Of a DNA stretch of 57,084 nt, positions 15,802 to 55,907 are shown piece by piece. The stretch covers positions 1-57,084 of the forward strand of contig JACPLG010000013.1 in NCBI GenBank assembly GCA_016186625.1, written 5' to 3'. How positions within the stretch are numbered: the first letter of the stretch is position 1; each line of letters starts with the position of its first letter. The notes under the pieces were generated by a model. The model searched no databases, was not told the DNA's origin, and saw nothing but the letters and a program-made list of their open reading frames with translations. The translations under genes were made by a program, and so were the position numbers. This stretch comes from Candidatus Levyibacteriota bacterium. GTDB taxonomy: Bacteria > Patescibacteriota > Microgenomatia > Levybacterales > UBA12049.

Positions 15802-15830
15802 TTGCATTTAGGCATATGCTTAGCTATAAT
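15802..15830 (+). promoter_or_regulatory. near-consensus promoter upstream of rplC leader
   Basis: The sequence reads TTGCAT-N17-TATAAT. Confidence 0.65.
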
Positions 15831-15943
15831 TACAAGTACAAAATGGCTAGACAAACACAGGCCACCGGCCTCGGAGGGCTTCTGGCCCGGAGGGAGGTGA
15901 TTGTAGCTACATAGGCTCATTTTTCAAAGTAACTCTTGAAGAG

Positions 15944-15968
15944 AGCGACACTATGTGGTCGCTTTTTT
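15944..15968 (+). terminator. intrinsic terminator/attenuator in rplC leader
   Basis: AGCGAC-actatgtg-GTCGCT is followed by TTTTT. Confidence 0.6.
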
Positions 15969-15984
15969 GTTGCTTAGCCCCTTT

Positions 15985-16040
15985 GTCATCCTGAGTGAAA
16001 CGAAGGATCTTTTAAGATTCTTCACTTCGTTCAGAATGAC
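15985..16040. repeat. GTCATCCTGAG...CAGAATGAC hairpin element (intergenic copy)
   Basis: GTCATCCTGAGTGAAACGAAGGATCTTTTAAGATTCTTCACTTCGTTCAGAATGAC is self-complementary and homologous to 54113-54169. Confidence 0.85.
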
Positions 16041-16048
16041 ATTTTTAT

Positions 16049-16993
16049 ATGTTAGCTTTAATAGGAGTAAAAAAATCGCAAAGCCAAAAGTTTTTGGAAA
16101 ACGGAATGCGAATTCCGGTTACTCTTATTGACGTTAAGGGTAACTGTGTAATTGCAGTTAAGACTTCGGAGCGCGATCATTACCAAGCTGTACAGCTTGG
16201 TTTTGGTATTAAGAAGAATGCAACGCGCGCAGAAGTGGGACATGGTAAAGGGGCCAAGAGAGATATGGCCCCTAAATTTTTAAAAGAAGTCAGAATTCTT
16301 GATGATTCTCCACTTCCGCAAGTCGGTTCGGTCCTGAATCCTTCGGAAGTTTTTCAGCCTGGAGACACAGTTAATGTCTCAGGTGTCTCAAAAGGAAAAG
16401 GATTCGCTGGAGTTGTTAAAAGACACGGGTTTCATGGCGGTCCAAAAACTCACGGACAGTCGGACAGGCACAGAGCTCCCGGTGCAATTGGCCAGGGAAC
16501 AACGCCGGGAAGAGTGTATAGAGGCAAAAAAATGGCGGGCAGAATGGGAACGGACAACGTAACTGTTAGAAATTTAAAAATAGTTGATGTTACGGCTGAC
16601 GGGGTTTTGGTAGTTAAAGGATTAGTTCCGGGAATCACTGACGGTTTGATTGTTGTTAAAAAGGTTGGAGAAGACAAGAAGTTTGTACCGCTTTATAAAG
16701 AGGTGGAAGAAGTATCAAGCGTATCAAAGGTATCAGAGGGAGAAGGTTCGGCCGCCTCCGTTGCACAAGACGAAGCTTCGGACGAGCCAAAGGAAACCTC
16801 AGAAAACTCGGAGAAATCAGACGATCAGAATGTCAGTGGATCGGAAAATCAGAACGAACAAGTAGAAGTTTCCGGAAATCAGAATTCGGATGTTCAGAGT
16901 TCAGATACTGATCAGGAGAAAACTAGCGAAGTGCCAGGAGCAAGTAGTGAGAAGCCAGTAGCTGAAGCAGAAGGAGAAAAAGATGCCAAATAA
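16049..16993 (+). CDS. rplC: 50S ribosomal protein L3 with ~100-aa acidic Ser/Glu-rich C-terminal extension
   Basis: MLALIGVKKSQSQKF..., FQPGDTVNVSGVSKGKGFAGVVKRHGF and GQSDRHRAPGAIG are present. Confidence 0.93.
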   Translation: MLALIGVKKSQSQKFLENGMRIPVTLIDVKGNCVIAVKTSERDHYQAVQLGFGIKKNATRAEVGHGKGAKRDMAPKFLKEVRILDDSPLPQVGSVLNPSEVFQPGDTVNVSGVSKGKGFAGVVKRHGFHGGPKTHGQSDRHRAPGAIGQGTTPGRVYRGKKMAGRMGTDNVTVRNLKIVDVTADGVLVVKGLVPGITDGLIVVKKVGEDKKFVPLYKEVEEVSSVSKVSEGEGSAASVAQDEASDEPKETSENSEKSDDQNVSGSENQNEQVEVSGNQNSDVQSSDTDQEKTSEVPGASSEKPVAEAEGEKDAK

Positions 16994-19169: not shown

Positions 19170-19216
19170 AAAAATTCAAAAATGCAAAATTCAAAATTAC
19201 AATTAAAGGAGGAAAA

Positions 19217-19285
19217 GTTATAAGTTATAAATTATGAGTTATAAGTTCGGGCTAAACTAATAACTTATAACTAAGAACTAATAAT
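19217..19285. repeat. TTATAAG-word hairpin element, copy 2
   Basis: The sequence is GTTATAAGTTATAAATTATGAGTTATAAGTTCGGGCTAAACTAATAACTTATAACTAAGAACTAATAA. Confidence 0.8.
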
Positions 19286-19296
19286 TTAATTTGTTT

Positions 19297-31057: not shown

Positions 31058-31090
31058 AATTATGAATTACGAATTAAGAAAGGAGAAAAA

Positions 31091-31155
31091 GTTATAAGTT
31101 ATAAGTTATAAGTTCGATTTGGACTAATAACTTATAACTAAGCACTAATAACTTA
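31091..31155. repeat. TTATAAG-word hairpin element, copy 4
   Basis: The sequence is GTTATAAGTTATAAGTTATAAGTTCGATTTGGACTAATAACTTATAACTAAGCACTAATAACTT. Confidence 0.8.
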
Positions 31156-52609: not shown

Positions 52610-53629
52610 ATGAATGACGCTTTGATGCTCGCGGTACTCAAGGAGAAGTCTGCTCCTGGTGTCAGCCTAAAAAAGATTCCAATCCCCAATCCCCAAAAAG
52701 ATGAAGTTTTAGTAAAAGTTGTTTATGCCTCAATTTGCGGAACAGATATTGGAATTTACGATTGGATTCCATGGGCACAGGGTCACATTAAACCTCCTCA
52801 TGTCATGGGACATGAGTTGGTGGGAGAAATTGTTGAGATAAAATCAACGGATAAAACAAACTTTGAACTGGGCGATCTTGTCTCATCCGAAACGCATATT
52901 TTTTGCCAGAATTGTTACCAATGCAGTATTAAAAATTACCATATTTGCGAAAACATGGAGCTCTTTGGGATCGGACGTGATGGTTCGTTCGCAGAATACG
53001 CTACTATTCCAGTTAGAACCACTTGGAAAAATGACCCAAAGATTCCAACTGAATCTATGAGTGTTCAAGAACCATTGGGTAATGCGGTCAATGTGGTTAC
53101 AAAAGCCAATGTTAAAGATAAAAAAATTCTGGTTATGGGACTGGGTCCAACTGGACTTTGTGCAGGAATGGCAGCAAAAGCATACGGAGCTAGGGAAATA
53201 GTAGGAGTTAATAGACGGGAATACCGAAGAAAACTTGCTATGAAGGTAGGTTTTGATCGTGTAACAGATAAGTTGCCTGAGAAAGAATATGGAACTTTTG
53301 ATGCAGTGCTTGAGATGAGCGGAAATAGACTAGGCATTGAAATTGCGCTTGAAGCAGCTCGAATCGCTGGAAAAATTATAGCTTTTGGAATTCCAAAGGA
53401 GAACATAAATATTGACTGGGGGAAATATATAATCAATAAAGAACTCTCAATAGAATCAGTTTTTGGCAGAATGATTTGGGACACCTGGAAAGACGTAACA
53501 GAACTTCTCGTGACCGGAAAAGTGGATCTTAGAAAAATCATCACTCATAGATTTAAACTTTCCGAATTTGAAGAGGCAATGAAAGTTATGAAATCAGGCC
53601 AATGCGGCAAAATTCTTCTTTCACTCTAA
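52610..53629 (+). CDS. tdh: L-threonine 3-dehydrogenase (Zn-dependent MDR family)
   Basis: ASICGTDIGIYDW..WA...PHVMGHELVGEIVE and the structural-Zn pattern CQNCYQCSIKNYHIC are present. It is adjacent to kbl. Confidence 0.85.
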   Translation: MNDALMLAVLKEKSAPGVSLKKIPIPNPQKDEVLVKVVYASICGTDIGIYDWIPWAQGHIKPPHVMGHELVGEIVEIKSTDKTNFELGDLVSSETHIFCQNCYQCSIKNYHICENMELFGIGRDGSFAEYATIPVRTTWKNDPKIPTESMSVQEPLGNAVNVVTKANVKDKKILVMGLGPTGLCAGMAAKAYGAREIVGVNRREYRRKLAMKVGFDRVTDKLPEKEYGTFDAVLEMSGNRLGIEIALEAARIAGKIIAFGIPKENINIDWGKYIINKELSIESVFGRMIWDTWKDVTELLVTGKVDLRKIITHRFKLSEFEEAMKVMKSGQCGKILLSL

Positions 53630-53632
53630 ACT

Positions 53633-54853
53633 ATGGATAAATTCTACAAGCAAATCGAGGAGGCTATAAAGACGGGAAAATCTGCTCGAATCATCGAGTC
53701 GGGAGAAGGTGCATACCTCACAATTGGAGGAAAAAAGAAATTAAATTTTTGTTCTAGCCACTATTTAGGTCTGTCCGTTGACCCTCGACTCGCAAAAGCA
53801 GCTTCAGACGCAGCACGCAAATACGGAATTGGGACTGGTTATAGAACTCTTGCCGGAAACCATGTTTTACATTTAGAACTCGAGGATCATTTGGCTCGCT
53901 TTAAACACGCAGAAGCTGCAGTTATTTTCACCGGCGGATATATGGCCAACTGCGCAGCAATTCAAACAATTATTGGCAAGGAAGATATTGTTATTTCAGA
54001 TGAGCTGAATCATGCATCAATTATTGATGCAATAAGACTTTCTCAAGTTAAGAACAAGTTTATTTATAAACACTTGGACATGGTGGATCTGGAAGAGAAA
54101 TTAAAACAGGTTGTCATCCTGAGCAACAGTGAAGGATCCCAAGATTCTTCGGCTGCGCCTCAAAATGACAATCGCAAGCCTTTAATTTTGATAGTTACTG
54201 ATGGAGTCTTCTCAATGGACGGTGACTTGGCGCCACTTCCAGATATTGTTCGTTTGGCTCGGCAGTATGGGGCACTTACTATGGTAGATGATGCACATGG
54301 AGAAGGAGTTTTAGGAAAAGGAGGAAGGGGGATTGTCGATCATTATGGAATTCACGGACAAATTGATATTGAAGTTGGGACTTTATCAAAAGCATTTTCC
54401 ACTATGGGAGGATTTATTACCGGAAGAAAAGAGCTTATTACCTATTACAAACAAAAAGCCCGCCAATATCTGTTTAGCAATGCTTTAACAATTCCAGATA
54501 CAGCAGCTCTTATTGAAGGAGTAAAGATTTTAGAAGAGTCAGATGAGCTAGTCAAAAAGCTCTGGGATAATACAAAATACATCAAGGAAAAGTTTGCCGA
54601 TCTTGGGTTTGATATTGGACATTCTAAGAGCCCAATAACTCCTGTGATGATTCCAGATGAGGATAAAGCCCGCGAATTTTCGGCCAAACTGTTCGAACTG
54701 GATGTTTTCGCAACGCCAATTGTTTTTCCCATGGTGCCTAAAGGAAAAGCAAGAATTCGCGTAATTCCTTCCGCATCACATTCAAAAAAAGATTTAGAAT
54801 TTGGAATAGGCGCATTCAAAAAAGTTGCAAAAGAGCTTTCCCTCCTGAGATAA
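53633..54853 (+). CDS. kbl: 2-amino-3-ketobutyrate CoA ligase (glycine C-acetyltransferase) with 19-aa in-frame repeat insert
   Basis: NFCSSHYLGL, ISDELNHASIIDA, DGVFSMDGD, VDDAHG and the GTLSKAF PLP lysine motif are present. Confidence 0.9.
   Translation: MDKFYKQIEEAIKTGKSARIIESGEGAYLTIGGKKKLNFCSSHYLGLSVDPRLAKAASDAARKYGIGTGYRTLAGNHVLHLELEDHLARFKHAEAAVIFTGGYMANCAAIQTIIGKEDIVISDELNHASIIDAIRLSQVKNKFIYKHLDMVDLEEKLKQVVILSNSEGSQDSSAAPQNDNRKPLILIVTDGVFSMDGDLAPLPDIVRLARQYGALTMVDDAHGEGVLGKGGRGIVDHYGIHGQIDIEVGTLSKAFSTMGGFITGRKELITYYKQKARQYLFSNALTIPDTAALIEGVKILEESDELVKKLWDNTKYIKEKFADLGFDIGHSKSPITPVMIPDEDKAREFSAKLFELDVFATPIVFPMVPKGKARIRVIPSASHSKKDLEFGIGAFKKVAKELSLLR
54113..54169. repeat. GTCATCCTGAG...AAAATGAC hairpin element inside kbl (57 nt = 19 codons)
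   Basis: GTCATCCTGAGCAACAGTGAAGGATCCCAAGATTCTTCGGCTGCGCCTCAAAATGAC encodes VILSNSEGSQDSSAAPQND and is codon-aligned. Confidence 0.85.
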
Positions 54854-54860
54854 TTCCCTA

Positions 54861-55907
54861 GTGAAATACGATCAACTTATTGCCTCTGGGACCTTTGACC
54901 TTTTTCATAAGGGGCACAAGTCTTTTTTGGAAAAATCATTTGAGGTCACAGATGAAGTTATTGTTTGTATAACCAGTAATAGTTATGTTAAATCTTTTAA
55001 AGATTTAAAAGACATCGAAGATTTTGAGATTAGGAAAAAAACAGTTCTTCAGTTTTTAACTTCAATTGGGGTGGCGGATAGAGCGAAAATTATTTCAATT
55101 GATGATGTCTTTGGACCACTTTTGACGCGACAGTTTGATCCAAATGCAATTGCGGTGACTCCTCAAACAGAAAAAACAGCTATAGAAATTAATGAAAAAA
55201 GAAAAGAGCTTGATTTACCACAGCTTGAAATTATTGTCATTGAAATGGAAAAAGCTGATGATGGTGGACTAATCTCCTCAACCAGAATTAGAAAAGGAGA
55301 AATTAATAGAGGCGGGCGGCTATATGTTCGAAATAATTGGAGAGATAAAACATTAAAGCTTCCACAAAATTTGCGCCCGGTCTTGCAAAAACCTCTAGGA
55401 AAATTATTGAGTTGGGTTCCATCAGGTGTTGACGGTTCGAAGGCTATAACGATCGGAGACATCTCAACTCAAAAATTTAATGAGAAAAATGTGGGGCAAT
55501 TTTTGTCAGTTGTAGATTTCAAAGTTCACAGGGAGAAAATGTTTGAAAAACTCTCAGATTTGGGCTTTGTTGAAGATATAGAAACAATTAAAGTAGGAAA
55601 TCCAGCTGGGACAATTACATGGGATTTGTTCGAAGCCGTTCAAAAAGCATTTAGTACGGAAAATAGAAAAATAATTCTAGTGAAAGGGGAAGAGGATTTG
55701 GCAGTTTTGCCAGCTTTACTTATTTCGCCTCTTGGGTTTACCGTTTACTATGGCCAGCCCGCCTACGCCGAGGCTTCCTCCGACGCTAAAGCTTTGGCGG
55801 ACAGGTCTGCGGGCAGGCCAAATGAGGGATTGGTTGAAGTGCCGGTTACCGAGCAAAACAAAGAAAAAGCCTACGATTTGGTTAGTAAATTCACTTCACA
55901 GTCTTAG
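54861..55907 (+). CDS. fusion of archaeal-type phosphopantetheine adenylyltransferase-like cytidylyltransferase and DUF359 (GTP-dependent dephospho-CoA kinase family) domain
   Basis: The N-terminus has ASGTFDLFHKGHKSFL (HxGH). The C-terminus has GDISTQ...VVDFKVHR...VKGEEDLAVLPALLISPLGFTVYYGQP...GLVEV, with a GTG start. Confidence 0.7.
   Translation: MKYDQLIASGTFDLFHKGHKSFLEKSFEVTDEVIVCITSNSYVKSFKDLKDIEDFEIRKKTVLQFLTSIGVADRAKIISIDDVFGPLLTRQFDPNAIAVTPQTEKTAIEINEKRKELDLPQLEIIVIEMEKADDGGLISSTRIRKGEINRGGRLYVRNNWRDKTLKLPQNLRPVLQKPLGKLLSWVPSGVDGSKAITIGDISTQKFNEKNVGQFLSVVDFKVHREKMFEKLSDLGFVEDIETIKVGNPAGTITWDLFEAVQKAFSTENRKIILVKGEEDLAVLPALLISPLGFTVYYGQPAYAEASSDAKALADRSAGRPNEGLVEVPVTEQNKEKAYDLVSKFTSQS
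55753..55818. repeat. GC-rich hairpin element inside the DUF359 domain (66 nt)
   Basis: GCCAGCCCGCCTACGCCGAGGCTTCCTCCGACGCTAAAGCTTTGGCGGACAGGTCTGCGGGCAGGC has arms that pair, with G-U pairs on the sense strand. Confidence 0.8.

Follow-up and report, generated by a model that had tools for sequence, protein, structure and literature searches.

The window analysed here, a 57,084-nt stretch of a Candidatus Levyibacteriota contig, raises the question of how one palindromic element comes to lie both in front of a ribosomal protein gene and in frame within an enzyme gene, and what becomes of the second copy when the enzyme is made. The original prediction held that a 56-nt hairpin at 15985-16040, ahead of rplC, and a 57-nt hairpin at 54113-54169, inside a kbl-like gene, are copies of one MITE/REP-like element, and that the copy in kbl is either translated or removed. 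Both sequences were read out exactly at these coordinates. In a global alignment they share 44 identical positions in 59 columns with a score of 25, about 9 standard deviations above the −9.8 ± 3.9 (maximum 6) obtained with 2000 shuffles, and significant similarity of the two copies was thus borne out by the formal alignment that had been proposed as a possible refutation. The 11-mer GTCATCCTGAG has two sites in the window, both within the hairpin copies. When folded as RNA, the intergenic copy reaches −23.4 kcal/mol (z −5.2) and the kbl copy −21.6 kcal/mol (z −4.1), and hairpin folding of both is possible on either strand.

Both copies consist of two ~25-nt hairpin units in inverted orientation, with a spacer of 4-6 nt between them. 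With its tag bases the intergenic doublet occupies 15984-16041 (assigned to neither strand), with a T at 15984 and an A at 16041. Its left unit (15985-16009, + strand) is GTC-ATCCT-GA-GT-GAA-AC-GA-AGGAT-C; the spacer TTTTAA (6 nt, 16010-16015) separates it from the right unit (16016-16040), which on the − strand reads GTC-ATTCT-GA-AC-GAA-GT-GA-AGAAT-C. The doublet in kbl, likewise assigned to neither strand, spans 54112-54170 including a T at 54112 and an A at 54170. Here the mini-hairpin of the left unit (54113-54138) has decayed, with GCAACAGT instead of GCGAAAGC, and after the spacer CCAA (4 nt, 54139-54142) the right unit (54143-54169) reads GTC-ATTTT-GA-GGC-GCA-GCC-GA-AGAAT-C on the − strand. 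All four window units are tagged TGTC, and neither doublet encloses a gene between its closely spaced units. A scan of the window with Rfam at gathering thresholds returned one tRNA and nothing else, and the intergenic copy, searched at E ≤ 10, gave only microRNA-like matches at chance level. In the literature we found no relevant account of the DNA sequence of the unit or of its peptides.

The unit is widespread. We scanned one genome per species with the pattern GTCATCCTGAG-N5-9-GAAGGATC, which leaves the mini-hairpin free, and found at least 120 stretches with a unit in genome contigs of many phyla, including Chloroflexota, Acidobacteriota, Bacillota, Bacteroidota, Planctomycetota, Cyanobacteriota, Pseudomonadota, Omnitrophota, Saccharibacteria, Komeilibacteria and others. 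The general layout is (T/C)GTC, ATCCT/ATTCT, GA, a mini-hairpin (mostly GC-GNA-GC), GA, AGGAT/AGAAT and C. The stem ATCCT-GA-GC / GC-GA-AGGAT contains nine stacked positions counted from AT, two of them G•A and not Watson–Crick. Both inner pairs of the mini-hairpin are formed in 48 of 56 distinct variable runs, compared with 12.4 ± 2.9 in shuffles, and compensatory changes from C-G to T-A occur, e.g. in the GTGAAAC of the window's intergenic copy. The loops are mostly 3-nt GNA (CGCAGC in 40, CGAAGC in 23 and CGTAGC in 10 of 152 units). Of 78 doublets, 70 have a pyrimidine (T or C) at position −1 and 74 a purine (A or G) at position +1, and no conservation of the flanks extends beyond these two positions. 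The doublets span 41-148 nt (77 cases), overall with no bias towards multiples of three, and heterodimers of a CCT-type and a TCT-type unit, to which both window copies belong, are common.

Viral (IMG/VR) contigs contain the unit in at least 120 stretches (L207-L326), one of which (L259) has five copies in tandem, ~87 nt apart. Spread of the family by phages is no more than a possibility, and among the 120 viral loci listed with units none matches the GIY-YIG nuclease described below.

The window hairpins belong to the superfamily of CGTC/TGTC-tagged REPs, that is, the Ssn-related motifs (SRM). The tag of CGTC REPs is often TGTC and their stem starts with AT; for the most part they form inverted dimers, in many cases heterodimers, whose spacers measure 1-100 bp, and dimers within genes encode 20-30 amino acids of the form VI...D (Di Nocera et al., BMC Genomics 2013, PMC3733652). 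Rickettsia RPE-4 and RPE-6 and Neisseria dRS3 are members of the group (PMC3733652). In the same way the units described here have an unpaired TGTC or CGTC tag at one end and an 8-9 bp stem which opens with complementary A-T and T-A pairs, and they form inverted dimers and heterodimers with outward tags and variable spacers, able to fold into a single long hairpin; dimers within genes give peptides beginning with VI and ending with D. They differ in the two G•A mismatches of the stem, in a unit sequence outside the four described families and in their hosts, which include Patescibacteria and many other phyla. Moreover, the 4-5 nt loop and CCA-like 3′ tail of CGTC-1 to CGTC-4 were not found, as our unit ends in C followed by the variable spacer. 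The 3-nt GNA loop and the missing CCA tail thus define a further family that is none of CGTC-1 to CGTC-4.

A similar picture emerges from the comparison with SRM. The published search sequence HGTCWYN(0-2)YYVSBRHN(0-5)WNVSBRGN(0-2)RNCYNB (PMC11893778) matches neither the four window units (0/4) nor the census units (0/152), while the Neisseria NTS and an Azospirillum unit, our positive controls, both match. SRM/NTS repeats share with the present family the hairpin unit with an oriented GTC tag and the dispersed, mostly intergenic copies, but here the unit is made of ATCCT, tandem GA and a GNA mini-hairpin and not of an ATTCCCGC-type stem. NTS are rarely intragenic (2%), and in-frame protein inserts are absent from the discussion of Chenal et al. 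(PMC11893778). The lack of matches to the SRM pattern, combined with the shared association with a nuclease, makes this an uncatalogued family of the same kind as SRM.

This association was recovered from the census loci themselves. When the 3071 ORFs of the 120 loci were clustered all against all, one family was found to adjoin units, a GIY-YIG protein of ~95 aa, with ORFs abutting units in 5 of the 120 loci; the three that were tested all match Pfam PF01541. In the reciprocal direction, metagenomic loci of one clade of ~95-aa GIY-YIG proteins carry units at a distance of up to 250 nt in 63 of 80 cases, and on both sides with the tags pointing outward in 31 of 80. Unit density is 4.3/kb near the gene compared with 0.22/kb farther off, a 20-fold enrichment. 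The tag base of the gene-flanking units is T in 49, C in 6 and A in 1 (n = 56), and around Ssn-like genes the arrangement of unit, ssn and inverted unit forms modules of ~0.4 kb. Planktothrix agardhii WP_083616022.1 is an example of an Ssn homologue whose gene has this unit type on its flanks. In nine of ten annotated records the GIY-YIG gene is enclosed by inverted REPs of the type native to its host (Azospirillum, Neisseria, Novosphingobium, Sinorhizobium, Planktothrix, Spirosoma, Aeromonas, Rhizobium and Shinella); across the ten records the type of the flanking unit varies with the host of the gene. On the plasmid AZO_p3 of Azospirillum lipoferum 4B (L330), an Ssn-like gene with flanking CGTC doublets sits between sufB and sufC, inside the operon. 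In a Cyclobacteriaceae genome (L013, 3461-3670) an Ssn-like gene between two units is frameshifted and probably represents a decaying copy.

The association between repeat and nuclease is already published and is not new here. The names Ssn for the enzymes and SRM for the repeats come from Chenal et al. (Nat Commun 2025, PMC11893778), who also described the NTS-ssnA-NTS layout as IS-like. Ssn is a single-domain GIY-YIG nuclease of 94 aa, and its binding of the unit as single-stranded DNA, with cutting of one strand a few bases outside the tag, was demonstrated by experiment for homologues from Neisseria, N. elongata, N. wadsworthii and Wolbachia (PMC11893778). SsnA binds its unit solely as single-stranded DNA and cuts one strand a few bases upstream of the tag; it is inactive on double-stranded DNA and on RNA, and does not bind RNA (PMC11893778). 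Our loci agree well with that system: units flank single-domain genes of the Ssn family, the NTS-flanked homologue of Neisseria gonorrhoeae is 46% identical to our query GIY-YIG protein, and the frequencies of any unit and of units on both sides (79% and 39%) resemble the published 71% and 42% (PMC11893778). By analogy, Ssn nucleases may also act on the present unit type. A tblastn search of the 57-kb contig detected no ssn-like gene.

The gene that carries the second copy (53633-54853, + strand) encodes a PLP-dependent acyltransferase of the BioF/Kbl family, 406 aa long. Its top NCBIfam matches, TIGR01825 and NF005394, are both under the curated cut-offs, and the Pfam match is PF00155. The kbl naming is supported by the upstream neighbour (52610-53629, + strand), an L-threonine 3-dehydrogenase-like gene that matches NF003808 and TIGR00692 with E ~1e-102, below the cut-offs; the same gene order is found in four other loci (L001, L004, L005 and L006). 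As predicted, the 57-nt element is codon-aligned in this ORF and encodes VILSNSEGSQDSSAAPQND, residues 161-179 of the protein, between LEEKLKQV and NRKPLILIVTDG. The further statement that homologues have only a short loop at this place did not hold, as close homologues read VELAKTPKSDGNS there. Consequently the net gain is nine residues (406 vs 397 aa) and not 19, and about ten native residues have been replaced. Among the best 120 homologues listed, most are 395-399 aa long and have LKEAVELAKTPKSDGNSPLILIV at the site, where the window protein has LKQVVILSNSEGSQDSSAAPQNDNRKPLILIV.

The distribution of the insert is patchy. Two proteins that are 89% identical to the window protein outside the insert (P0002 and P0003) do not possess it, while in two less similar ones (P0004, 79%; P0056, 75%) it is present and agrees in its 3′ arm and flanking codons. 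A conserved loop of the lineage would have spoken against a mobile element; since the closest relatives are devoid of the insert, the mobile-element reading survives this comparison. The relatives are too diverged to provide a clean empty site for either window copy, and none was obtained. When a 52-aa stretch spanning the insert served as the query of a protein search, no matches came back.

The insert is located between the helix formed by residues 150-165 and the strand at 185-190. An AlphaFold model (mean pLDDT 68.8, a moderate value) extends the helix into the insert and continues as low-confidence coil up to the strand, with pLDDT <50 at residues 167-178, and the insert is accordingly predicted to be disordered. 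The nearest solved structure, 7poa from Thermus, has 13 residues fewer in this loop. Inserts are evidently tolerated here: in two homologues (P0071 and P0105) the loop contains other members of the superfamily, and in two more (P0008 and P0038) unrelated short inserts. Within the set P0008, P0038 and P0096, two Kbl homologues that are mutually 77% identical carry an RPQTPERSDGGQA insert in the same loop, and an in-frame insert SLPFASAKGKHLD is present one loop earlier. The left unit of the P0056 element contains a nested 20-nt GC-rich mini-hairpin, CTGCCTGCCGGCGAGGCAGG (L004, 10040-10059).

How old is the insert in kbl? Compared with the P0004 allele, synonymous sites are saturated and dN/dS is ~0.1, but the insert itself differs at 4 of 57 bases. 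Identity at third codon positions, 43% as a background, rises to 80% at codons 121-140, 65% at 141-160 and 84% at 161-179, and then falls to 50%. This raised identity indicates that a tract of ~180 nt, which ends at the 3′ edge of the element, is younger than the rest of the gene. The simplest reading of these alignments would be transfer of the insert-bearing segment by homologous recombination, which could account for the patchy distribution.

Rickettsia palindromic elements were reportedly described by Ogata et al. in 2000 as lying in frame within protein genes. The kbl element resembles them as a palindromic repeat, probably translated, that interrupts a housekeeping enzyme in frame at a surface position open to insertion. 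Judged by description, it differs from RPE-1, which measures 100-150 bp and is confined to Rickettsia, and the kbl insert has also displaced native residues and bears signs of recombination between lineages. In-frame insertion of a repeat is thus a known kind of event, whereas the repeat family involved here is uncatalogued.

The intergenic copy is situated in front of rplC (16049-16993, + strand), which encodes the 50S ribosomal protein L3 (TIGR03625, 208.9 bits at a cut-off of 142.9, with residues 4-204 aligned to profile positions 2-202). Only 8 nt separate the end of the doublet from the rplC ATG, with no Shine–Dalgarno sequence between them, and an identical copy is present in an independent assembly (L327). 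Upstream lies the conserved leader of the L3-L4-L23 operon (rplC-rplD-rplW), read from the sequence at 15802-15968 (+ strand). It comprises a promoter-like TTGCAT-17 nt-TATAAT (15802-15830, + strand) and a terminator-like hairpin, GCGAC-ACTATGTG-GTCGC followed by TTTTTT (15945-15968, + strand), both conserved in the relative L328. The two signals would function as promoter and terminator, although a consensus scan listed neither of them and no Rfam family matches the leader. The leader extends ~140 nt beyond the promoter-like element and may be an attenuator of the ribosomal protein operon. The doublet starts 16 nt past the T-run, and its place between an attenuator-like terminator and the rplC start is a typical REP position. 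In L328 the leader is kept but the doublet is absent from the matching place, which is taken by a different palindromic element of ~110 nt (555-665) with the arms GAGGGAACTTACAAAATTTTC and GAAAATTTCGCAAGTTCCCC. Such a replacement points to turnover and not to a conserved regulatory hairpin. Within the window's leader, a GC-rich segment of ~35 nt at 15859-15893, GCCACCGGCCTCGGAGGGCTTCTGGCCCGGAGG, is absent from L328 and resembles a small inserted repeat.

Taken as a whole, we consider it likely that the two hairpins are tagged doublets of the REP/SRM type, and that the copy in kbl arrived in a loop of the enzyme and is simply translated. It would have entered the surface loop between the helix and the strand LILIVTDG, or have come by recombination, and about ten codons would have been replaced on its arrival. 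The copy would now be transcribed and translated as an insert of 19 residues (net +9) that the enzyme tolerates.

Of the two fates originally offered for the kbl copy, translation is favoured by length, frame and selection, while we found nothing in favour of removal. The four sequenced insert alleles measure 57, 57, 75 and 81 nt, all multiples of three and free of stop codons, a regularity that is partly due to ascertainment because a protein search returns intact in-frame alleles only. In the L004 allele the nested insertion of 20 nt and the loss of 2 nt from the spacer offset each other: translation passes through the GAAGGATC core in a different frame, but the sequence beyond the element is back in register. 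Insert-bearing alleles are under purifying selection (dN/dS ~0.1), and genuine SpoU, Fe-ADH and MurB genes from other phyla also contain units in frame. Judged from the sequence, the kbl copy is therefore most likely translated as an extra surface loop, and its peptide would be made. Removal of the insert, whether by excision from the mRNA, by excision from the DNA of a subpopulation or by ribosomal bypassing, appears extremely unlikely to us. Such a process could make use of a hairpin that is stable on either strand and would bring the loop length closer to that of distant homologues such as 7poa. However, it would render the compensating +20/−2 nt indels needless, the stop-free lengths in multiples of three speak against it, and it would not restore the native loop, as ten native codons are gone. 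Furthermore, the mini-hairpin pairing has been lost in the window copy, which weakens any structure-dependent process, and the characterised partner enzyme SsnA does not bind RNA. Units are also five-fold depleted from stop-free reading frames that span them (17/137, against 65% at random positions), a measure that relies on the random-position control and on Pfam checks, since such coding calls are noisy in high-GC genomes. Excision in silico yielded a spanning frame that was gained only after excision in 15 candidates, where 8.6 were expected. No split gene was confirmed among them, and the one examined closely (L060) is a yidD-yidC spacer. An intein or a group I/II intron was rejected, 57 nt (19 aa) being far too small. 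Co-option of the elements, with the intergenic hairpin controlling the rplC operon by occluding the start or stabilizing the mRNA and the kbl insert selected as a loop or mRNA structure, is in our estimation improbable. It would fit well with a hairpin of −23.4 kcal/mol immediately before a start codon that has no Shine–Dalgarno sequence in between and just past an attenuator-like terminator, with the persistence of the kbl insert in three diverged lineages under purifying selection, and with the argument that many REPs work as RNA elements (PMC3733652). Yet the position ahead of rplC is subject to turnover in L328, and the kbl insert is missing from the nearest homologues, has a decaying hairpin and is predicted to be disordered.

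The class assignment of the original prediction, MITE/REP-like, can be retained in its REP part, given the inverted pairs of tagged units and the affinity to the CGTC/TGTC-REP group. A strict MITE is not supported: 71 of 78 doublets lack a flanking direct repeat that could represent a target-site duplication, no recurrent transposase family was detected beside units among the 3071 ORFs of the 120 census loci, and the partner gene is a GIY-YIG nuclease. The same results bear on the idea of a conventional MITE or REPIN mobilised by a DDE or RAYT (Y1 HUH) transposase, with the GIY-YIG gene as a passenger or as a homing-type gene that targets doublets. The inverted doublet with a variable spacer that gives a long hairpin is indeed as in REPINs, as are the many gene-less copies next to a unit-flanked partner gene, and the module of unit, gene and unit resembles an insertion sequence. 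Nevertheless the tag is YGTC and not the GTAG of REPIN/RAYT systems, whose Y1 (HUH) transposase (Bertels and Rainey 2011, PMC3116915) was likewise not found here, and the type of the flanking unit changes with the host of the GIY-YIG gene; we regard this explanation as very unlikely, although the nuclease may still be a passenger or a homing gene. A more far-reaching view is that ATCCTGAG/GNA units form a large uncatalogued SRM class whose nuclease cuts incoming single-stranded DNA next to the unit and thereby sets the ends of recombination tracts, alleles with an in-frame copy spreading in a homing-like manner among Patescibacteria. We put this forward as a doubtful though conceivable extension; if true, the abrupt drop in identity where the kbl element ends on its 3′ side would be its footprint.

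The present family extends the Ssn/SRM system, characterised only in 2025, to repeats which the published pattern misses and which are found in a great many phyla, Patescibacteria among them, as well as in viral contigs. It also explains a common source of odd peptides such as VILSEAKDL, HPERSEGS and ILRFAQDD in metagenomic proteins. The kbl gene provides a clear case of a repeat built into a housekeeping enzyme, in an allele with signs of recombination between lineages. More generally, the units mark permissive insertion sites in proteins, and their cognate nucleases are candidates for new specificities of single-stranded DNA cleavage.

Other repeats are present in the window. A GC-rich patch at 55750-55830 (64%, against 38% in the gene as a whole) folds into a hairpin and encodes AYAEASSDAKALADRSAGRP in frame within a gene with a cytidylyltransferase-like part and a DUF359 part (54861-55907). 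The L001 homologue has it too, and it probably stems from another repeat family that inserted in frame. Finally, an AT-rich inverted repeat of AGTTATAAGTT units occurs in two copies, at 19216-19288 and 31089-31154.
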